Source: a bacterium
GTDB taxonomy: Bacteria > Patescibacteriota > Dojkabacteria > SC72
Direction: 5' to 3'
Assembly: GCA_022840695.1 (NCBI GenBank)
Contig: JALHDC010000001.1
Coordinates: 84,456 to 148,455, forward strand
Length of the DNA stretch: 64,000 nt
Shown here: positions 18,887-30,106 of the stretch, piece by piece
Layout of the letters: each line of letters begins with the position of its first letter
Numbering within the stretch: position 1 is the stretch's first letter
Program-made: the position numbers and the translations under genes
The notes under the pieces: generated by a model
Database searches by the model: none
What the model was told of the DNA's origin: nothing
What the model saw: the letters and a program-made list of their open reading frames with translations, nothing else

Positions 18887-19738
18887 ATGGAACTATTAGA
18901 TGGAAAAATTTCTTCTCAAAAGATATTGGATGAAATATCTTCAGAGGTAGAGGATATTAGAAAAAATGGAAAACGAATTCCTAGATTGGATATGATACTG
19001 GTTGGGAATGATTTTGGTAGCATAAAATATGTTGGGATAAAGGAGAAGGTTGCTAATGAGGTCGGTATGATAGGAAAAGTCCATCATTTAGATTTTGAAA
19101 CTAATACAGCGGAACTGATTAATCTTGTAGATACTTTAAATAAGTATGATGATGTAGATGGATTCATGATTCAACTTCCTCTGCCAGAACATATAAATAC
19201 TAATTTAGTACTAGAGAGTATTGATCCTAGGAAGGATGTTGATGGTCTTACAGCTATTAATTTGGGGAAACTATTTCAAAAGGATAGATCAGCAATTCCT
19301 CCAGCGACACCATTAGGTATTATGAGATTGCTCGGGGAATATAATATAAAGATATTTGGTAAACATGTTGTTATTTTAGGTTCTAGTAATATAGTAGGGA
19401 TACCATTAGCAGCAATGATGTTAGAAAAGAATGCCACTGTAACTGTATGTAATTCTCATACTGTTGATATCCAGGGGGTATCAAAAACAGCAGATATTCT
19501 TGTTTGTGCAACAGGAAAACCACTATTAGTTAATTCCTCATTCATTAAGAAGGATGTTGTCATTGTGGATGTAGGATCTAATAAGCATCCAGAAACAGGA
19601 AAACTAGTTGGTGATGTAGATTGGGAGGATGTTAAAGGTATCCCTTCATATATAACACCGGTTCCAGGGGGAGTTGGTCCTATGACAATATCAAGTTTGA
19701 TGTTGAATCTAATGAACTGTTATAAAAAAAGTATATAG
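18887..19738 (+). CDS. folD: Bifunctional methylenetetrahydrofolate dehydrogenase/cyclohydrolase FolD
   Basis: LDGKISSQKI…, GKHVVILGSSNIVGIPLAAMML and PVPGGVGPMT are FolD-typical. Confidence 0.9.
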   Translation: MELLDGKISSQKILDEISSEVEDIRKNGKRIPRLDMILVGNDFGSIKYVGIKEKVANEVGMIGKVHHLDFETNTAELINLVDTLNKYDDVDGFMIQLPLPEHINTNLVLESIDPRKDVDGLTAINLGKLFQKDRSAIPPATPLGIMRLLGEYNIKIFGKHVVILGSSNIVGIPLAAMMLEKNATVTVCNSHTVDIQGVSKTADILVCATGKPLLVNSSFIKKDVVIVDVGSNKHPETGKLVGDVDWEDVKGIPSYITPVPGGVGPMTISSLMLNLMNCYKKSI

Positions 19739-19791
19739 AGGGATATTGGCTATGGTAGTAAAATGCTATATAATGTTCAATACATTCTGAT

Positions 19792-19841
19792 GAGAGGACT
19801 ACCAAAAGCTGTATATGCTGCGGAAATGCCTCTCTTTTTAT
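19792..19841 (+). terminator. Weak candidate terminator after folD
   Basis: GAGAGG…CCTCTC stem (31-nt loop) followed by TTTTTATT. The long loop lowers confidence. Confidence 0.3.
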
Positions 19842-19999
19842 TCTCGTTCAATATCATTTCGATGTAAATTTATATCAACTATTTTATTTGCATATTTTTT
19901 TAATAATCTAGAGTAGTTGTTGATGTCTGGTACTATAAAGATATATGCATAATTTTTCTTAGGCATATATAAATTCTAACAATGAAGAATTAATTATAT

Positions 20000-21274
20000 A
20001 TGAAATATTTATTTACCTCCCCATATCCTGTAAAATACAAAGGAATGTTAAAAGATAAAGGTATTCAAAAATTCATACAACAAGAAGCAAAAAGACAAGT
20101 AGAAGGTATTGAATTAATAGCTTCTGAGAACTATGTATCCGAAGATGTCCTCGAATGCATGGGCTCTATACTAACTAATAAATACTCTGAAGGATATGCA
20201 GGTAAAAGATACTACAAGGGGAATGAATATATTGATAATATTGAACAAGAGGCAATAAATAGGGCAAAATCTCTTTTTAAAGCAGAACATGTTAATGTTC
20301 AACCATATTCAGGATCTCCAGCTAACTTAGCTGTACATTTTGCACTCCTAGAACCAGGAGATAGAACTCTTGGTATGTCCTTAGATTCTGGAGGACATCT
20401 AACACACGGTTTTAAAGTATCAATATCTGGTAAATATTATGATTCTAGAAGTTATGGAGTTAATGAAGATGGATACATTGACTATGATGAAGTTCTCAAG
20501 ATTACTAAAGAGCACAAGCCTAAACTCATATGGGCAGGTTTTTCTGCATATTCTCGAATAATTGACTGGAATGAATTTAGAAAAATTGCAGATGAAGTTG
20601 GTGCATACCTGGTTGTAGATATCGCACATGTAGCAGGATTAGTAGCTTCCGGAGTATATCCATCTCCAGTAGGTATTGCTGATGTAGTTACCACTACAAC
20701 ACATAAAACCCTCAGAGGCCCTAGAGGAGCCATGATTATGTGTAAAGAAGAGTTAGGTGAAAAGATAGACAAAGCAGTATTTCCTGGCCTTCAGGGAGGC
20801 CCACACAACCACATAACAGCAGGTATAGCAGTTGCATTACAAGAGGCTAGTACCGAAGAATTTAAATCATATTCAAAGCAGGTAGTACAAAATGCAAAAA
20901 CTCTCTCGGAAGAACTTTCACAAAGAGGTTACAAGATAGTTTCTGGTGGTACAGACAACCACCTATTTCTTGTTGATGTAGTTTCTTCAGTAAATATTGC
21001 AGGCGAAGAAGCTTCAACTATATTGGAAAAAGCAAATATTACACTAAACAAAAATGCAATACCTAATGACCAAAGAAAACCTTGGGATCCATCTGGAGTG
21101 AGAATAGGGACACCAGCAATAACTACAAGAGGAATGAAAGAAAAGGAAATGATTAAAATAGCTGAATATATAGATACTGTATTGAGGAACAAAGATGATT
21201 TAAATCTAATAGGGAAGGTAAGAGAAGATATTAAAAAGTTCACATCTAAGTTCCCAATCCCAGGAATAAATTAA
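20000..21274 (+). CDS. glyA: Serine hydroxymethyltransferase GlyA
   Basis: IELIASENYVS and the PLP-Lys region TTTTHKTLRGPRG. Alternative start at Met16 (20045) is possible. Confidence 0.95.
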   Translation: MKYLFTSPYPVKYKGMLKDKGIQKFIQQEAKRQVEGIELIASENYVSEDVLECMGSILTNKYSEGYAGKRYYKGNEYIDNIEQEAINRAKSLFKAEHVNVQPYSGSPANLAVHFALLEPGDRTLGMSLDSGGHLTHGFKVSISGKYYDSRSYGVNEDGYIDYDEVLKITKEHKPKLIWAGFSAYSRIIDWNEFRKIADEVGAYLVVDIAHVAGLVASGVYPSPVGIADVVTTTTHKTLRGPRGAMIMCKEELGEKIDKAVFPGLQGGPHNHITAGIAVALQEASTEEFKSYSKQVVQNAKTLSEELSQRGYKIVSGGTDNHLFLVDVVSSVNIAGEEASTILEKANITLNKNAIPNDQRKPWDPSGVRIGTPAITTRGMKEKEMIKIAEYIDTVLRNKDDLNLIGKVREDIKKFTSKFPIPGIN

Positions 21275-21285
21275 CATACTCTGTT

Positions 21286-22881
21286 ATGAAGCTAAGCTTT
21301 AAGAAAGATTTACACATAGCTACAATTAGATCAGAGGAGATTTGGAATAAATTCAAAGTACATACACTATTACAAAACTGTGAATCTAAACAGCCATCGA
21401 TAAATGCATACCTTGGAGCCAGATACAGTAGATCATCAGATTCCATCGTAGATATTGCTTCTGAAATACTCAAAACTAATACAGATGCTGCTGAAAGATT
21501 AGAAAAAATATTCTCTGGATATGGTCATAAATCTGTTGGAGATATGGCAGACCTATTCCTCTGCTTAGAAGATATTCCTATGTTCACTGCTATGAAAATC
21601 TTCTACATCAACTCCGTAATTTCTGGACAGGAAAGATCTACAAGATATCAAAATTTCCAAAATCCAGAATTTGTAAAAATACCAAATGAAGTATGTACAG
21701 ATAGGGAGATAACTAAGGGATATGAAAGAATAATATTAAAACAGATGCAAGATTACAGGGAACTTCTTAAACCAACAAAAGATGCATTAGAGAAACATTT
21801 TAGAATTAATGATGAAAGTACACAGGAAGTATCAGCTCTAAAGGCTAGAGCATTTGATGTAGCAAGATATTTGCTTCCCTTTGGTCTAAATACAAGTTCT
21901 GCATATCTAATGTCTGCAAGGAATTGGTCTGATATGATCAGCTATCTTTGTTCTAGTGATTCTGTAGTTGAGAATTCTCTCTCTACACTTCTTTTGAATC
22001 TTTTAGGAGAATCTAACCTAGAAGCAAGAGGATATATTAGGGAAGCAGATGGCCTAATTAGACATACAGATGCAAATGGTTGTAGAAAGAGTTCTACAAA
22101 AAACATATTGGAATATATGAAAAAGAGTATATCTACAGAACAGTCTAGAGATATTCCCGAATGTGAGGAAGAAGCAATTAAAGTATCATACTCTCCAGAC
22201 TGTATGGAAGCTCTCATTTCTCACTATGAAGCATTGATTAATCCTTTAGGTTCTAAAGAAGAATTTGAGTTTTCTGAAACAGATCAAGAAGAGATAGGGG
22301 AGATAATATTTGAAAATCATGATCATCATAATACATTAGGTAATATCGGGCAATCAGGAGCTGTAAAGATAGAAGGTTTTGCAACTCTAGGTACATTGAA
22401 GGATATGAACAGGCACAGAAGCTTAGAAAGATTTATGCCAATATTTCATGACGAAATTGATATGGATCAGGAATTAGATAGAAGAAATGATCAATGTTTC
22501 TATCTCTGTAACTATTTAAACATTCCATCTCTTTCAAGATTAAGAAAGAGCTATGAAGAAAAACTCACAGATACATATGAGAGAATTAGAGAATGGAGAA
22601 AGATGGCAAAAGAGGTTCTCTCTAAAGAAGTTTGTGATGAGTATACAAAATATCTTCTTCCACATGCTCATGCTACAAGATATATCTTTTACGGATCATT
22701 TGATGATCTGCAATATATTTCAAATTTAAGAACTAGAAACGGAGGACATATAGCATATCGGAAATTGACATATGAATGGTTAAGAAATCTCTCCTACCTT
22801 GATCCAATATGGAGACCATTATTGAGAAAAATCATAGAGCCTCGTATTGATGACAAGCATCAATTTGTAGATAGAAGTTAA
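21286..22881 (+). CDS. Putative flavin-dependent thymidylate synthase ThyX-like protein, tandem-domain form (531 aa)
   Basis: N-half GYGHKSVGDMADLF…SGQERSTRYQ resembles ThyX GHESxxEH…SxxExSxRY but lacks RHR. C-half carries NRHRSLERF. Sits within the folD-glyA-…-dcd context. Confidence 0.45.
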   Translation: MKLSFKKDLHIATIRSEEIWNKFKVHTLLQNCESKQPSINAYLGARYSRSSDSIVDIASEILKTNTDAAERLEKIFSGYGHKSVGDMADLFLCLEDIPMFTAMKIFYINSVISGQERSTRYQNFQNPEFVKIPNEVCTDREITKGYERIILKQMQDYRELLKPTKDALEKHFRINDESTQEVSALKARAFDVARYLLPFGLNTSSAYLMSARNWSDMISYLCSSDSVVENSLSTLLLNLLGESNLEARGYIREADGLIRHTDANGCRKSSTKNILEYMKKSISTEQSRDIPECEEEAIKVSYSPDCMEALISHYEALINPLGSKEEFEFSETDQEEIGEIIFENHDHHNTLGNIGQSGAVKIEGFATLGTLKDMNRHRSLERFMPIFHDEIDMDQELDRRNDQCFYLCNYLNIPSLSRLRKSYEEKLTDTYERIREWRKMAKEVLSKEVCDEYTKYLLPHAHATRYIFYGSFDDLQYISNLRTRNGGHIAYRKLTYEWLRNLSYLDPIWRPLLRKIIEPRIDDKHQFVDRS

Positions 22882-22898
22882 ATTAATTACTAAATATA

Positions 22899-23462
22899 AT
22901 GATACTTTCAGATAAAACAATTAAAGAAAAAATCAAAGAGGGTTGTATAGTGATAAAGCCTTTTTCTGAGGAATTTCTACAGCCTGCATCCTACGATTTA
23001 CATTTAGATAAATACTTTTTAGTTTTTAATAAAGAAAATATTCCAATGATAGATGTAAAAAAGAAGGAAGAGAATTTAATGAGAGAAGTAGTTGTAGATG
23101 AGAAGAAAGGATTCATAATTCACCCTGGAGAGTTTGTATTGGCTAATGTTAAAGAGATAACGGGAGTAGATGCTAAGCATGTAGGAAGATTAGAGGGAAA
23201 AAGTTCTCTTGGAAGAATAGGTTTGATAGTTCATGCTACAGCAGGATTCTTGGATCCTGGAAATAAGCTAAGGATGACTCTTGAGTTGGCTAATGTTTCT
23301 CCGCTTCCAATAAGGATATATCCGGGGATGAAGATAGCACAAATGGCTTTTGAATGTTTAGATACAGAATGTGAAAGACCTTATGGAAGTAAGGAATTGA
23401 AGAGCAAGTATTCAGGAGACCTCAAAGTAAAAGGTAGCCAGATGTGGAAGAACTTTAAATAA
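22899..23462 (+). CDS. dcd: dCTP deaminase
   Basis: MILSDKTIKE… N-terminus and GKSSLGRIGLIVHATAGFLDPG motif. Confidence 0.9.
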   Translation: MILSDKTIKEKIKEGCIVIKPFSEEFLQPASYDLHLDKYFLVFNKENIPMIDVKKKEENLMREVVVDEKKGFIIHPGEFVLANVKEITGVDAKHVGRLEGKSSLGRIGLIVHATAGFLDPGNKLRMTLELANVSPLPIRIYPGMKIAQMAFECLDTECERPYGSKELKSKYSGDLKVKGSQMWKNFK

Positions 23463-23469
23463 TTCCGTA

Positions 23470-24636
23470 TTACATTGTAGGTGGTACAGGAGGCAAATCC
23501 TCATCTGTTGTTGTGTCTTGTACAGGTTGCTGTACAGGAGGAGTCTCTACGACAGGAGGTTGTGTAGCCATATTCTGTATTTCACTGTTTATTGTATTTT
23601 GTAAATCTGCAGCAGATGGTGTAGGTTGAGTTTCTGGCATTACTGTTTCAGGAGACGAAGAAGGCATTGGTTCTGCTAATGTTGGAGCACTTTGTGGTAC
23701 TTCCTGTTGTATTGATGGTGTCTCTTGTTGCATCAACTCCTGAAGATCTTTCTCCTCATTACCTGAACTCATTGGAGGTGTTGTTGGCATGACAGGAGGA
23801 GTAGGGATAGTTTCTACAGGTGTGGACTCCACTACTGGTGGTACAGAAGCAGGTTGTGCTTGCTCTACAGCTGGCGTTTCTGGGATCACACTCTCCTCAG
23901 TTTTATTCACCATATCTTTCAATGTAGGTTCCTGTTGGGGAGTACTGACTGGTGTTTCCTCTTGAACAGGTTCACTCATAGGTGTTTCAACTGTCTCATC
24001 AACAGAGGACTCTTTTTTCTTACTTAATAAAATTCCAATTATACTAATCAGTAATACAACGGATCCTGCTATCAAAATGTATGGTAAATACTCTGTTAGA
24101 TTATCTATACTAAAACCAGTACTCTGAGTTGTAGTTGTAACACTTTCCTGTGTACTTATAAGAGTAGGATCTTCTACTGTAGTAGTATCCTCTTCCTCTG
24201 TTACTGTCTCTTCAACTTCTCCTATATTTACAACTTCACCTAATTCCAATTCCCCTATATCCAAATCAGTATCATCCAAAACGGTAAAGGTATATGTACT
24301 TTCATCCGAAGTAAATAATATGTTTGCTAATACTCCACTTAATTCAGTAGCAGTATCCAATTCACAAGTTATAGTTACAGTATCTGTACTGTCAACATAG
24401 TCCAAAGAAGAACAAGTTATTGTTCCTGAATTAACCTCTGATATTGTTACTCCTTCTGAAAACTGTATAGGTAATACAATTTTCTCCAAAGTATCAGTCC
24501 CTGTATTTACAGTTATAGAAACAGACTGAATATCGGTAGTAGAGTTATCCTTTAAAGTTACATCTACAGCAGCAAATGCTTTTAAAGGGAAAAGGATTAA
24601 AGCAAAAACAAACAGAAAAGAATATATTTTTTTCAT
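23470..24636 (-). CDS. Surface protein: signal peptide, ectodomain, single TM, long Pro/Thr/Glu/Gln-rich cytoplasmic tail
   Basis: MKKIYSFLFVFALILFPLKAFAA signal. TM YILIAGSVVLLISIIGILL preceded by QSTG. The C-terminal ~190 aa are low complexity. Confidence 0.6.
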   Translation of the reverse strand: MKKIYSFLFVFALILFPLKAFAAVDVTLKDNSTTDIQSVSITVNTGTDTLEKIVLPIQFSEGVTISEVNSGTITCSSLDYVDSTDTVTITCELDTATELSGVLANILFTSDESTYTFTVLDDTDLDIGELELGEVVNIGEVEETVTEEEDTTTVEDPTLISTQESVTTTTQSTGFSIDNLTEYLPYILIAGSVVLLISIIGILLSKKKESSVDETVETPMSEPVQEETPVSTPQQEPTLKDMVNKTEESVIPETPAVEQAQPASVPPVVESTPVETIPTPPVMPTTPPMSSGNEEKDLQELMQQETPSIQQEVPQSAPTLAEPMPSSSPETVMPETQPTPSAADLQNTINSEIQNMATQPPVVETPPVQQPVQDTTTDEDLPPVPPTM

Positions 24637-25972: not shown

Positions 25973-26226
25973 TATCCTTTGAATGGGTTTGCTAATTTTA
26001 AAGCTGATACAGCTCTGTGTATTTGTGGATTTTTTATACCTTTTGCTATGTCTGCTTTATATGTACTTTTCTCTTCTGCCTTACTCAATTGATCCAGATC
26101 AGAGAGTAATTTATCTTGTGCTATCTTCTTAGTATCTACTGCCTGTGTAACCAAGTAGTTAGACAGATTTATTTGATTTTGACTACTGTCCTGTTCTTCC
26201 ATATTCATCCTCCGGATAACTTTCAA
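25969..26226 (-). CDS. Small hypothetical protein, last gene of the VirB4 operon (true start may be an internal Met)
   Basis: 85-aa helical ORF overlapping the VirB4 3' end by 44 nt. No recognisable domain. Confidence 0.3.
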   Translation of the reverse strand: MKVIRRMNMEEQDSSQNQINLSNYLVTQAVDTKKIAQDKLLSDLDQLSKAEEKSTYKADIAKGIKNPQIHRAVSALKLANPFKGY

Positions 26227-28639
26227 CTAAACCTTGGGGAGTTAAATGTTTTCTTCCCCTTTGTATATCCTCCCTTGACTTTACAGTTTGTCCTGAAATT
26301 GTACTTTCTTTTAATTCATCTAAGAATGTTTTTTGACTTTTATATTTCTCAGGATTTAATTCCATCTCTTGCTGTCTTAATCTCTCTTCTATTTCTTTCT
26401 GATACTGTTTTCTTTCTTCTTCCAACATTCCTTTATTTCCCTCTGTCCTACGAATAGCTTCTTGTATAATTTGTTCTTCTCTTTTGAGATTTCCTCCTCC
26501 CTTTAGTGGCTTCTGTTCTGCTGGAGGATCAAATATTTCTGATAGCTCTTCAATGGTTCTAGTCTCTGTTTGTCCCTCTCTCTTCTTAAGTTTTTCTAAA
26601 TCCCTTGGGTCTGAAGTGATCAATTCGTGTTCAGATACACTAGAAAGAACTTGTATACCAACATGGTTTGATCCAGCGAAGAATAGTCCTTGTCCTTTGT
26701 CACAGTTAAGGAGGAAATTCTTTTCCCCATCAGAAAGATTGAATACCTCCTGAAGTTTCTCTACAGCGGTAGGGCTTTGCATCATTAACATCTGCATAGA
26801 TGAGTTTGAAATAATGGCTTTTCCCATATCTGTATTTAAGAAATCGGCTACATCCTGGGTTATTGTTGAAAGTCCTAAATAATATTTTCTCGCTCTCTTA
26901 GCTATTGAATACATGAATCTAGCAGAATCTTCCGATTGCATCATGTACCAGGCTTCATCTACCACTAACAATCTTCTTTTTCTCTCCTTCCTTATCTTTG
27001 TCCAAATGAAATCAAGCATTAAGTACATAGCTAAAGGTTTTAGCTCTTCCTGTAGGTCTCTAATACTAAATACAGTGAATGGATTATTAATCTCAAAGTT
27101 ACTAGCTTCATTGAAAACTCCTGCACCACTTCCAATTATGTATTTTTCTAATCTCTTGGCTAAACCATGTGCTTCTGGTTCTGCCATACCTTTCAACACT
27201 TTGTACAGATCTTCTAGCATAGGGGGTGTTTTAGTTTGTGTATTTGGATCAAAGGTGATACCTTTTTCTCTGTATGTAAGTATTAAAGCTCTATCTAATA
27301 TGGAACCTTCAATATTATCTATTTCTCCAAATAGTACTCGGAAGAATCCTTGAAGAGAAAGCATTTTCATCCTTAATTCATCATCTCCTTCCTCTGTAAC
27401 TCCTGAAAGCTCAAAAGGATTCATTTTGTTTCCTTTATCCTGAGAGAATGAAATATATGCACCATTTACAGCTCTACAAAGATCTTCATATTCTCTTTCT
27501 GGATCAATTATTATTATTTCTGTGCCAAGCATCAAACTTCTAACAGCTTCTAGTTTTACAAAATAGCTCTTACCAGCACCAGATTTAGCAAATACTACTG
27601 TATTTGCATTTTCTAATTCGAATCTATCAAAGATAACTAAACTTTTGTTATGGAGGTTTAATCCATACATTATTCCATGGTCCATTGTTAACTCAGAAGT
27701 AACGAAAGGAAAGGTGGTTGCCAACGATGTAGTATCCATGTTTCTAGTTATATACAGGTTATCGAGACCTAGAGGTTGGGTACTGATGAATCCTTGTTCT
27801 TGTTGTAGTGTAGCTGGTTTCGCAGTCACATTAATAGCTGCAAGTGTAGATGTTACATTTCTTCCAATCTTTTCTAATAGCTCTTTATCTTTCGCATACA
27901 AGGTTATGTACATAGCAAAATGGAAAAACTTTTCGGTACCCTCTGCAATAGAATCTTGTAACTGTTGAGCATCTGATAGGGCAACCTTTAGTGAAGGATC
28001 TACTACCTTCCTATCTTCCATTTGAGCATACAAAGAAGCTTCCATTTCTCCTATCTTCTTTTTCAATTTCTCAAGTATAGTTTTAGAATCAACGGGATAG
28101 TAGAAGGTACTTATCCTCAAAGAGTGTTCGAAGTTGATAATAGGAGATAACCAATTTGGTCCTACAAACCTAGGATATCCGCTTACAAAAAGAGTTTTGA
28201 AATAATACTCTCCCATCTCTAAATGATTAAAATCCACCTCCAAATCTATTGGGGCTACTATATCCTGTATGGACATGTCCGTAGGGGATACTTTTACCTT
28301 CTCCAATACTTCTGCAGATATTGATTCTCCAACATTGTTATCTACTCCTGAATCAGTACTTTTCTCTTTCTCTCCTTTTCCAAACACTCCTGCAACATTA
28401 TCTAAGAATGTAAATAGAAAATTCTTCTTTTTCTTCTTCTCTACATCTTCTTTTGGTATTGGATCATTATATCTATTAAAATTCATTTTTTCAGAATTAT
28501 CTGTTGGTTCAACTTTAATTTCCTCCTTGAATTCATTATATTTTTCTCCAGGAGTCTTAAGTTTCTCTGCCTGTTCCTGTAACATCTGTGCTGTTTTATT
28601 CTCAAACGATCTATTGTAGTTATCATTAATATTTTCCAT
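26183..28639 (-). CDS. VirB4/TrbE/CagE-family type IV secretion ATPase (core + C-terminal part), with charged N- and C-terminal extensions
   Basis: IDLEVDFNHLEMGEYYFKTLFVSGYPRFV, Walker A AKSGAGKSYF, IIIDPEREY, Walker B LLVVDEAWYMM, STITQDVADF. Confidence 0.85.
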   Translation of the reverse strand: MENINDNYNRSFENKTAQMLQEQAEKLKTPGEKYNEFKEEIKVEPTDNSEKMNFNRYNDPIPKEDVEKKKKKNFLFTFLDNVAGVFGKGEKEKSTDSGVDNNVGESISAEVLEKVKVSPTDMSIQDIVAPIDLEVDFNHLEMGEYYFKTLFVSGYPRFVGPNWLSPIINFEHSLRISTFYYPVDSKTILEKLKKKIGEMEASLYAQMEDRKVVDPSLKVALSDAQQLQDSIAEGTEKFFHFAMYITLYAKDKELLEKIGRNVTSTLAAINVTAKPATLQQEQGFISTQPLGLDNLYITRNMDTTSLATTFPFVTSELTMDHGIMYGLNLHNKSLVIFDRFELENANTVVFAKSGAGKSYFVKLEAVRSLMLGTEIIIIDPEREYEDLCRAVNGAYISFSQDKGNKMNPFELSGVTEEGDDELRMKMLSLQGFFRVLFGEIDNIEGSILDRALILTYREKGITFDPNTQTKTPPMLEDLYKVLKGMAEPEAHGLAKRLEKYIIGSGAGVFNEASNFEINNPFTVFSIRDLQEELKPLAMYLMLDFIWTKIRKERKRRLLVVDEAWYMMQSEDSARFMYSIAKRARKYYLGLSTITQDVADFLNTDMGKAIISNSSMQMLMMQSPTAVEKLQEVFNLSDGEKNFLLNCDKGQGLFFAGSNHVGIQVLSSVSEHELITSDPRDLEKLKKREGQTETRTIEELSEIFDPPAEQKPLKGGGNLKREEQIIQEAIRRTEGNKGMLEEERKQYQKEIEERLRQQEMELNPEKYKSQKTFLDELKESTISGQTVKSREDIQRGRKHLTPQGLVESYPEDEYGRTGQ

Positions 28640-29274
28640 TACTCTTCCTCAGGGTTATATATAGTGTAGAATTCAGACAATAATTCCTTTGTAGTTAATT
28701 GGTGTCCAAAAAGACCCATTCTTCCTAACTGCTTAAGAAGATGATCTCTCTTTGGAAAAAGAAATATCTTAGCTTTCTCTATTAATTGATCTGTTTGCAT
28801 CTGTTTGTATTTCTCCTGTTCCTCCTTATTCTTTTTACTATCAAAGATACTACCTCCAGGTAATGGTACACCAGGGCTATACGGTATTACAAGAAAGAAA
28901 CTTTTATCTAATACATCATTTTCCACAATTAATTTTTGTACAAATTCGGTATATATATCTAACTGCTTCTTTAGTCCCTCACTCATCTGCTTATTCTTTT
29001 GTCCTTTTAGGTAGTCTATGTAGTTAGTGATATCGATTCTTCTAGTTCTGATTAATATCTGAATTCTAAAGTTCAAGGAATTTAGCAATCCTGCAAAAGC
29101 ATATATCTTATTATCTTGTTCATACTCAGCCAAGAGATCAAAGTTTATGGAAGATGTTTGAATAATCATTGCTACACTACCATTCTTAGTTATTAAGAGA
29201 TCATCTTTTATATCCCTTACCCCCAAATGTTCTTGTGTTGATGCTGTAGCTCTCGCTCTTGCGTTCTTTTCCAC
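28639..29274 (-). CDS. VirB4 N-terminal-domain-like protein, translationally coupled to downstream VirB4 ORF
   Basis: LLITKNGSVAMIIQTSSINFDLLAEYEQDNKIYAFAGLLNSLNFRIQILIRTRR follows the VirB4/TrbE N-terminal pattern. Its stop overlaps the next ATG (TAATG). Confidence 0.5.
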   Translation of the reverse strand: MEKNARARATASTQEHLGVRDIKDDLLITKNGSVAMIIQTSSINFDLLAEYEQDNKIYAFAGLLNSLNFRIQILIRTRRIDITNYIDYLKGQKNKQMSEGLKKQLDIYTEFVQKLIVENDVLDKSFFLVIPYSPGVPLPGGSIFDSKKNKEEQEKYKQMQTDQLIEKAKIFLFPKRDHLLKQLGRMGLFGHQLTTKELLSEFYTIYNPEEE

Positions 29275-29275
29275 A

Positions 29276-30106
29276 TTAAATATTATTAATTTTAATAGGT
29301 GACTTATTCTCTCTGTTACTTAACTCTAGTTGTACCTTTGGGAATTTATACACAGGATGTTGAAATTCTAACATATATGTTCCAATATCCCACATTTTGT
29401 TTGTAAGGAAGTACCCATTGGTACCAGTTCGATTAGCATACAGAACCTTTTGCTGAGAATCTTTTAAATATACAATTACATTAGGTATTGGTTTAAAATC
29501 CTTTGTACATAACCAAGCATTAATGTTTCCTGGGAGCCTATCTAAACTTTTAATATTGAATTGGTAGTTAGCAATATTACTATCTGTAATTACTAAAAGG
29601 TTTGGATCAATAGGGGGGGTAGTTAGGTTTTCTTCTACATTTAATTCTTCATCAAGCATATCTATGTCATCTTCTACCTCTGCATCCTCTTTTTTTATAT
29701 CTAATCCAACTCCTATGATCTTTTTATTTTTATCTTTAACATCCTTTGGTATTATCTGTCCATCTTCAGAAGGTTTAACTTCAGGCTTACTCCTTTCTTC
29801 TCTCATATCTTTATTCATCCATACTCTTTGTGTTGGATTACTAATAGCGGAGATGTAATTTTTTATGAATACATCTGCATCTTGATCATTAACTGGTACT
29901 AATCCTAAAAATATTCCTGCCCCCGAGGAAATGATGAATACAGGTATTCCTAAAATACCTGGAATTATATTACTCGCAGTTAAATATATCATTACTCCTC
30001 CAAAGCCTATACCGATGGCTAAATAGGCGAATTCTTTTAGAGTGAATTTAGTAAAGAGTTTAAACTCAACATCTAATATATTTTGTGGAATAGCATGTTG
30101 TCTCAT
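29276..30106 (-). CDS. Membrane protein with N-terminal two-helix hairpin (VirB3-like by topology/position) and C-terminal beta-rich ectodomain
   Basis: TM1 FAYLAIGIGFGGVMIYL and TM2 ILGIPVFIISSGAGIFLGLV. C-terminal carboxypeptidase-regulatory-like motif RTGTNGYFLT…GTYMLEF. Lies 1 nt upstream of the VirB4-N ORF. Confidence 0.4.
   Translation of the reverse strand: MRQHAIPQNILDVEFKLFTKFTLKEFAYLAIGIGFGGVMIYLTASNIIPGILGIPVFIISSGAGIFLGLVPVNDQDADVFIKNYISAISNPTQRVWMNKDMREERSKPEVKPSEDGQIIPKDVKDKNKKIIGVGLDIKKEDAEVEDDIDMLDEELNVEENLTTPPIDPNLLVITDSNIANYQFNIKSLDRLPGNINAWLCTKDFKPIPNVIVYLKDSQQKVLYANRTGTNGYFLTNKMWDIGTYMLEFQHPVYKFPKVQLELSNRENKSPIKINNI

Follow-up and report, generated by a model that had tools for sequence, protein, structure and literature searches.

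A predicted flavin-dependent thymidylate synthase made of two fused, diverged ThyX domains in a folD-glyA-thyX-dcd cluster of Dojkabacteria

The flavin-dependent thymidylate synthase (FDTS) ThyX has long been studied as an antibacterial target; of its four identical subunits, three are needed to form an active site. In the FDTS structures of Mycobacterium tuberculosis (Mtb) and Helicobacter pylori every site draws on three subunits (PMC6514825, section 3.1): in the Mtb enzyme, subunit A provides the RHR motif 95-97 and R199 (R174 in Thermotoga maritima, Tm), subunit B provides S71, the serine of the GHxS motif, and R190 (Tm R165), which contacts flavin adenine dinucleotide (FAD), and subunit C provides Q103, S105, R107 and Y108 (Tm E86, S88, R90 and Y91) (PMC6514825). 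Here, I describe a 531-residue protein of a Dojkabacteria bacterium, encoded in a window of 64,000 nucleotides (assembly GCA_022840695.1, contig JALHDC010000001.1, positions 84,456 to 148,455 of the forward strand), in which such residues are shared out between two ThyX-like halves of a single chain. With a probability of roughly 0.7, this tandem ThyX is a functional flavin-dependent thymidylate synthase made of two fused, anciently diverged ThyX domains and acting as a homodimeric pseudo-tetramer.

That both halves are ThyX domains is supported by Pfam matches, by profile-profile alignments and by the order of secondary-structure elements in a predicted structure. The Pfam profile Thy1 (PF02511, gathering score 24.8 bits) matches the whole protein with 82.4 bits (E=4.8e-23), through one stretch in each half; each half taken alone also exceeds the gathering score, the N-half with 61 bits (residues 40-225, profile positions 12-169) and the C-half barely, with 26.4 bits (profile positions ~96-190). 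With hhalign, residues 66-225 align to residues 38-178 of Tm ThyX at a probability of 80%, and residues 357-507 to its residues 59-199 at 92%, the reference sequence having been checked as 100% identical to the database entry (P0272). Aligned with one another, the halves reach 86% over 48 columns; BLASTP finds no significant match between them, and they are linked by profile-profile comparison only. A confident AlphaFold2 (AF2) model, computed with 70 homologues (predicted local distance difference test 91.3, predicted template modelling score 0.90), repeats the same order of elements in both halves, namely beta, alpha, beta, long alpha, alpha, beta, alpha, alpha. Each of the top 50 Foldseek matches of this model in the PDB is an FDTS of T. 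maritima or M. tuberculosis, found at a probability of 1.00 and covering one domain with a target-normalised template modelling (TM) score of 0.57-0.70. The tandem ThyX proposed in an initial annotation, which had been made from the letters of the DNA, is thus borne out by the presence of Thy1 in both halves, by the two alignments and by the repeated AF2 element order.

Residues were mapped by hhalign to Tm ThyX, and their conservation was read from an alignment of 160 full-length homologues, which represent ~20 clades and are 23-53% identical to the query. The motifs listed in the initial annotation were all found: GHKS and SGQERSTRYQ in the N-half (residues 80-83 and 113-122), FYIN (106-109) at the site of the canonical (F)RHR, and NRHRSLERF (375-383) in the C-half. 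The N-half keeps H81 and S83 (Tm H53 and T55), E116, S118, R120 and Y121 (Tm E86, S88, R90 and Y91), R194 (Tm R147) and R212 (Tm R165); it has lost the RHR motif, Y107, I108 and S110 standing at Tm R78, H79 and R80, and has L221 at Tm R174. The C-half keeps K372-D373 (Tm R74-Q75), R376-H377-R378 (Tm R78-H79-R80) and R482 (Tm R174); it is without an alignable GHxS motif and without the loop carrying serine, arginine and tyrosine, and has K455 and D473 at Tm R147 and R165. In other words, Y107-I-N-S110 replaces RHR ahead of an intact SxxExSxRY in one half, and R376-H-R378 is without a downstream Ser/Arg/Tyr in the other. The contiguous RHRX7S(xRY) signature is therefore absent from either single half and complete only when both are combined, and each member of the set contacting FAD or deoxyuridine monophosphate (dUMP) (Tm H53/T55, R78-H79-R80, E86, S88, R90, Y91, R147, R165, R174) occurs once per chain, the set being divided between the halves.

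The retained residues are close to invariant. Among the 160 homologues, S118 is present in all, R120 in 159, H81 and S83 in 158 each, R194 in 156, R212 in 145 and E116 in 132, and position 121 is tyrosine in 135 and phenylalanine in 24. In the C-half the counts are R376 and R482 159/160, D373 158/160, R378 152/160 and H377 147/160, and in the region that follows R482 they are G486 153, G487 151, H488 127, Y491 153 and R492 149 of 160. At the reciprocal, lost positions every clade shows variation, and the motif split is present in all clades examined and down to ~25% identity among relatives. The complementary split is thus the defining feature of the family and not a quirk of one sequence; residue mapping and conservation thereby sustain the earlier suggestion that the halves supply complementary active-site motifs.

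The split fits the published subunit origin of ThyX residues (PMC6514825). The C-half would bring the residues of subunit A only, its RHR motif and R174-type arginine holding the phosphate and ribityl groups of FAD and the uracil. The N-half would bring those of subunit B, namely the histidine and serine of GHxS with the R165-type arginine on the flavin side, as well as those of subunit C, namely the E-x-S-x-R-Y loop with the R147-type arginine on the dUMP side. Because B and C are different subunits, one chain could not complete a site and a homodimer would be needed. This active form would mimic the ThyX tetramer, the C-halves taking two positions and the N-halves the other two, and would hold two complete sites, each formed by one C-half and both N-halves, along with two degenerate ones. 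From these comparisons I infer dimerisation, the 2+2 arrangement of sites, the FAD stoichiometry and catalytic activity; the predicted reaction is dUMP + CH2-THF + NAD(P)H -> dTMP + THF, where CH2-THF is methylenetetrahydrofolate, THF tetrahydrofolate, NAD(P)H reduced nicotinamide adenine dinucleotide (phosphate) and dTMP thymidine monophosphate. Two further conserved elements, the motif E253-A-D-G-L257-I-R-H-T261 in the inter-domain coil (L257 157/160, E253 130/160) and the C-terminus F527-x-D-R530-S531 (F527 142/160, R530 157/160), may extend into the active sites or into the degenerate ones.

Strongly conserved residues outside the canonical set (the L257 motif, R530, Y477, Y491-R492 and R188/D191) also speak for an alternative, unlikely in my judgement, in which the protein makes thymidylate without forming a dimer with two live and two dead sites: it might have four working sites, completed by compensating residues such as those of the linker motif or the arginine near the C-terminus, or be a monomer or a higher oligomer of other geometry. 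Yet the reciprocal positions, that is, the counterparts of RHR and R174 in the N-half and those of S88/R90/Y91, R147 and R165 in the C-half, are conserved in no clade, as expected from relaxed selection on two dead sites. In addition, the canonical B and C residues, which belong to two different subunits, are here found in the N-half only.

Thymidylate synthase activity is strongly supported by gene context, because suppliers of dUMP and CH2-THF and a consumer of dTMP travel with the gene. The initial annotation had placed folD, glyA and dcd around the open reading frame (ORF), and Pfam and NCBIfam matches confirm them there (Table 1). The cluster it had drawn likewise keeps its order in related loci of Candidatus Dojkabacteria (WS6), to which the family's closest members belong; there, a SprT-like gene, an ABC transporter, folD, glyA, thyX, dcd and a Lon-like AAA+ gene follow one another in most of 80 loci; across these 80 related loci, many of them truncated, folD is found in 59, glyA in 62 and dcd, as a direct neighbour of the tandem thyX, in 59. 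Pacebacteria and other Patescibacteria show the reverse order (dcd-thyX). A Woesebacteria locus (L081/L082, 3878-11646) combines DCD and thyX with a deoxyribosyltransferase-like gene (Nuc_deoxyrib_tr), thymidylate kinase (Tmk), thymidine kinase (TK), serine hydroxymethyltransferase (SHMT) and FolD, and a Nanoarchaeota contig (L083, 4853-8842) carries a deoxycytidine monophosphate (dCMP) deaminase and thyX, then a fusion of Nuc_deoxyrib_tr with Tmk. In a Candidatus Daviesbacteria protein of 758 aa (P0409), thymidylate kinase is itself fused N-terminally to the tandem ThyX. Suppliers of dUMP, a supplier of CH2-THF and a consumer of dTMP accordingly accompany tandem thyX across bacteria and archaea. 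The cluster folD-glyA-thyX-dcd would provide the one-carbon donor as well as the deoxyuridine nucleotide, and the function is an ordinary one: dTMP synthesis within a folate/deoxyuridine operon. The nucleoside 2-deoxyribosyltransferase-like gene, for its part, is a recurrent neighbour of thyX and tmk.

Several points weigh against a homodimeric synthase of this kind. The EADGLIRHT linker and R530 are without a canonical ThyX counterpart, which shows that the tandem ThyX is not simply two joined ThyX subunits. The ThyX equivalog model TIGR02170 is not reached (51.5 against a cut-off of 87.9 bits), and a hidden Markov model (HMM) of Thermotogae ThyX fails to detect the tandem ThyX. The PDB holds no solved tandem ThyX structure, and biochemistry of any member was not found in the literature searched. 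Furthermore, a thyA or a canonical thyX could lie elsewhere in the genome; within the 64-kb window, no thyA, no canonical or second thyX and no dut were found. Because phmmer finds zero matches of the protein in the PDB and the Thermotogae HMM is blind to it, the family lies, judged by sequence, very far from the enzymes that have been characterised; a profile of 14 sequences retrieved no more from the PDB than a marginal match, in the C-terminal domain, to PBCV-1 ThyX (2cfa).

This great divergence, seen in the score below the TIGR02170 cut-off and in the lack of a phmmer match in the PDB, would suit, together with the family-specific motifs and the homologues in large phages, where modified bases are common, a ThyX-fold enzyme with another substrate or product: not a dTMP synthase but a catalyst, for example, of the methylation or hydroxymethylation of dCMP, uridine monophosphate or another pyrimidine nucleotide, on the model of the ThyX-like enzymes that act in nucleoside-antibiotic pathways or in the modification of phage bases. 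I consider this quite unlikely, for the residues of dUMP recognition and methylene transfer are all kept (equivalents of E86, S88, R90, Y91, R147 and R174), dUMP supply recurs next to the gene with thymidylate kinase, thymidine kinase, SHMT and FolD, once even as a Tmk fusion, the gene lies in a housekeeping chromosomal region, and a second thymidylate synthase is not seen in the window. A dead or regulatory ThyX relic, to which the lack of a complete signature in either half (RHRX7S is not contiguous) might point, is hardly credible against a full catalytic complement kept in trans under strong purifying selection in >500 sequence clusters, a conserved operon context and a Tmk fusion that is sensible only for an active enzyme.

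As for the layout of the operon encoding the putative synthase, the intergenic gaps measure only 11 bases between glyA and thyX and 17 bases between thyX and dcd, so that glyA-thyX-dcd are almost certainly co-transcribed. A fusion artefact or a frameshifted gene pair was ruled out, for >100 orthologues have the identical length of 531 aa. The spacer between folD and glyA is AT-rich and 260 bp long; most related loci lack such a gap, the genes abutting or overlapping there. The spacer may contain an internal promoter for glyA-thyX-dcd. The Rfam scan returned zero matches in it, therefore a THF or ZTP riboswitch is absent from it.

Table 1. Coordinates, in the window, of the tandem thyX gene, its domains and motifs, and the neighbouring features
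Feature	Position (nt)	Strand	Correspondence or basis
Tandem thyX ORF, 531 aa + stop	21286..22881	+	ATG start, ORF list
N-terminal ThyX domain, ~residues 1-240, putative subunit B and subunit C roles	21286..22005	+	Thy1, hhalign
GHKS, G80-S83, flavin/folate side, putative subunit B role	21523..21534	+	Tm G52-H53-E54-T55; Mtb H69/S71
Degenerate RHR, Y107-I108-N109-S110	21604..21615	+	Opposite Tm R78-H79-R80; variable columns
S113-G-Q-E116-R-S118-T-R120-Y121, dUMP-binding/catalytic loop, putative subunit C role	21622..21648	+	Tm S83..E86..S88..R90-Y91
R194 to R212	21865..21921	+	Tm R147 to Tm R165 / Mtb R190; hhalign
Inter-domain segment, ~residues 241-330	22006..22275	+	Residues 241-265 coil in AF2
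Linker motif E253-T261	22042-22068	+
C-terminal ThyX domain, ~residues 331-531, putative subunit A role	22276..22878	+	Thy1, hhalign, weak 2cfa profile match
R376-H377-R378, sole RHR motif	22411..22419	+	Preceded by K372-D373 (Tm R74-Q75)
L481-R482...G486-G487-H488...Y491-R492	22726..22761	+	R482 = Tm R174 / Mtb R199, uracil-binding arginine
Conserved C-terminus F527-x-D-R530-S531	22864..22878	+
folD, methylene-THF dehydrogenase/cyclohydrolase	18887..19738	+	PF00763 + PF02882; NCBIfam FolD models
folD-glyA spacer	19739-19999
glyA, SHMT, makes CH2-THF	20000..21274	+	PF00464 548 bits; NF000586 607 bits
dcd, deoxycytidine triphosphate (dCTP) deaminase family, supply route of deoxyuridine triphosphate (dUTP)/dUMP	22899..23462	+	TIGR02274 173 bits (cut-off 92.8); PF22769
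388-aa protein	23470-24636	-
Lon-like AAA+ protein, 402 aa	24764-25972	+	AAA + Lon_lid domains
Type IV secretion/conjugation-like genes	26183-30106	-

Over its whole length the window has the gene content of a Candidatus Dojkabacteria (WS6) chromosome, with a GC content of 28-36%: it includes the 3' part of rpoC, L25, hrcA-grpE-dnaK, murJ, groEL, a recF-like gene, lepA and type IV secretion-like genes. That the window is of phage or mobile origin was considered and rejected, the flanks being housekeeping genes, and scans of the whole 64 kb for transfer RNAs and for Rfam families (at the gathering threshold) found nothing. Downstream of dcd, on the opposite strand, lies the gene of a 388-aa protein whose N-terminus resembles a signal peptide; a single hydrophobic segment lies at its centre, and its long C-terminal half is of low complexity and rich in Pro, Thr, Glu, Val and Gln. 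The protein is conserved in part only, occurring in 27 of the 80 related loci. The Lon-like AAA+ protein encoded beyond it has AAA and Lon_lid domains, its protease domain being undetected, and the gene is conserved downstream of the cluster in 50/80 loci. The type IV secretion/conjugation-like genes that follow encode, among others, an 818-aa VirB4/TraG-like P-loop ATPase and a PrgI-family protein; genes of this type are common in genomes of the candidate phyla radiation (CPR).

The tandem ThyX family is large, and the protein of the window has thousands of homologues in databases. An exhaustive HMMER search of 1.84 billion cluster representatives (50% identity clusters) returned 1323 clusters at E<=1e-3, 548 of them at E<=1e-10, and among the best 150 listed of the 1323 nearly all are 480-640 aa long and aligned over their full length. 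Named sources comprise Dojkabacteria, Microgenomates, Pacebacteria, Woesebacteria, Daviesbacteria, Ktedonobacteraceae, Dehalococcoidia and one Nanoarchaeota archaeon, in addition to cyanophages, a broad range that spans CPR bacteria, Chloroflexota, one DPANN archaeon and viruses. A scan of genome contigs with very specific peptide patterns led to Patescibacteria only, and look-ups of divergent cluster representatives, in sets of 20, gave little taxonomy. Close homologues are annotated as 'FAD-dependent thymidylate synthase' or 'thymidylate synthase ThyX'; many of the more distant ones, in Woesebacteria, Daviesbacteria, Ktedonobacteraceae and Nanoarchaeota, bear the label 'hypothetical protein', with no more than faint Thy1 hits on record. 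In the literature searched, a tandem, fused or two-domain ThyX is nowhere described. The two-domain architecture with reciprocal residue loss is thus a real, strongly conserved variant, undescribed as far as found. Of the notable variant suggested by the initial annotation, the architecture stands, the conserved split being real; the novelty has to be toned down, since the family is large and usually annotated as ThyX already.

The duplication of a domain, followed by reciprocal loss of active-site residues within the fusion, offers a clear case of subfunctionalisation within a single enzyme. The tandem ThyX would also be a ready-made asymmetric ThyX, in which the three contributing subunit roles are genetically separated, and could aid in dissecting mechanism and half-site behaviour. 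The 'hypothetical' labels in CPR and DPANN imply, moreover, that thymidylate synthesis may be wrongly scored as missing when the metabolism of these small genomes is reconstructed. A bolder reading, rather doubtful at present, would make the protein an obligately asymmetric, half-of-the-sites synthase, the sole dTMP-forming enzyme of most CPR, of some DPANN and Chloroflexota and of several cyanophages, with the degenerate sites, the linker and the C-terminal arginine put to new use, for instance in binding NAD(P)H or folate at a dedicated site or in allosteric control by nucleotides. If true, it would constitute a distinct and undescribed mechanistic class of FDTS.

Among known systems, ThyA shares with the predicted reaction of the tandem ThyX only the net product dTMP, its fold and chemistry being unrelated. 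The ThyX of Chlamydia trachomatis is presumably ~529 aa long, about double the usual size; if so, it may belong to the tandem class, which is offered as a lead only; no Chlamydia protein appears in any match list. The C. trachomatis protein has been assayed as an active enzyme (PMC3498832). Cellular homologues from Dojkabacteria (WKZ29822.1), Dehalococcoidia (MCL0042927.1) and Candidatus Microgenomates belong to the same family, those of Dojkabacteria being also found in the same operon, and the protein of the window is 60-98% identical to >100 database-annotated cellular homologues.

Further afield, 'thymidylate synthase' gp020 of the Microcystis phage Ma-LMM01 (YP_851034.1, 491 aa; L086, 3887-5362) displays the same two-domain architecture. 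It matches the AF2 model in a Foldseek search of BFVD with TM scores of 0.85/0.92 and a root-mean-square deviation of 2.5 A, and it shows the same split, with YGHGS...GQERSTRYQ in the N-half and NRHRS...LRSRVGGHINYR in the C-half. In contrast to the protein of the window, it is viral, shorter, ~30% identical and annotated by similarity only, and no functional study of gp020 was found. With tblastn, the homologues of the cultured cyanophages (the Ma-LMM01/MaMV group and the Microcoleus phage My-WqHQDG), which share this motif split, are 29-31% identical over 88-95% of the query, and that of a 309-kb Tunturiibacter phage (Tunturi_5) covers 70% of it in two aligned pieces; some phage homologues are annotated as 'thymidylate synthase' and others as 'hypothetical protein'.

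The closest characterised relatives remain the canonical ThyX/FDTS enzymes (EC 2.1.1.148), such as TM0449 (1O26) and Rv2754c (3GWC). Each half has the same fold as these (Foldseek TM 0.6-0.7), the catalytic, FAD-binding and dUMP-binding residues are the same once both halves are pooled, and the metabolic context, with SHMT and FolD, is shared. The tandem ThyX differs in its extra conserved linker and C-terminal motifs and in its build: canonical ThyX consists of identical subunits of ~220-250 aa and forms four active sites per tetramer, whereas here a single chain of 531 aa carries two diverged domains and two active sites are predicted per (pseudo)tetramer.

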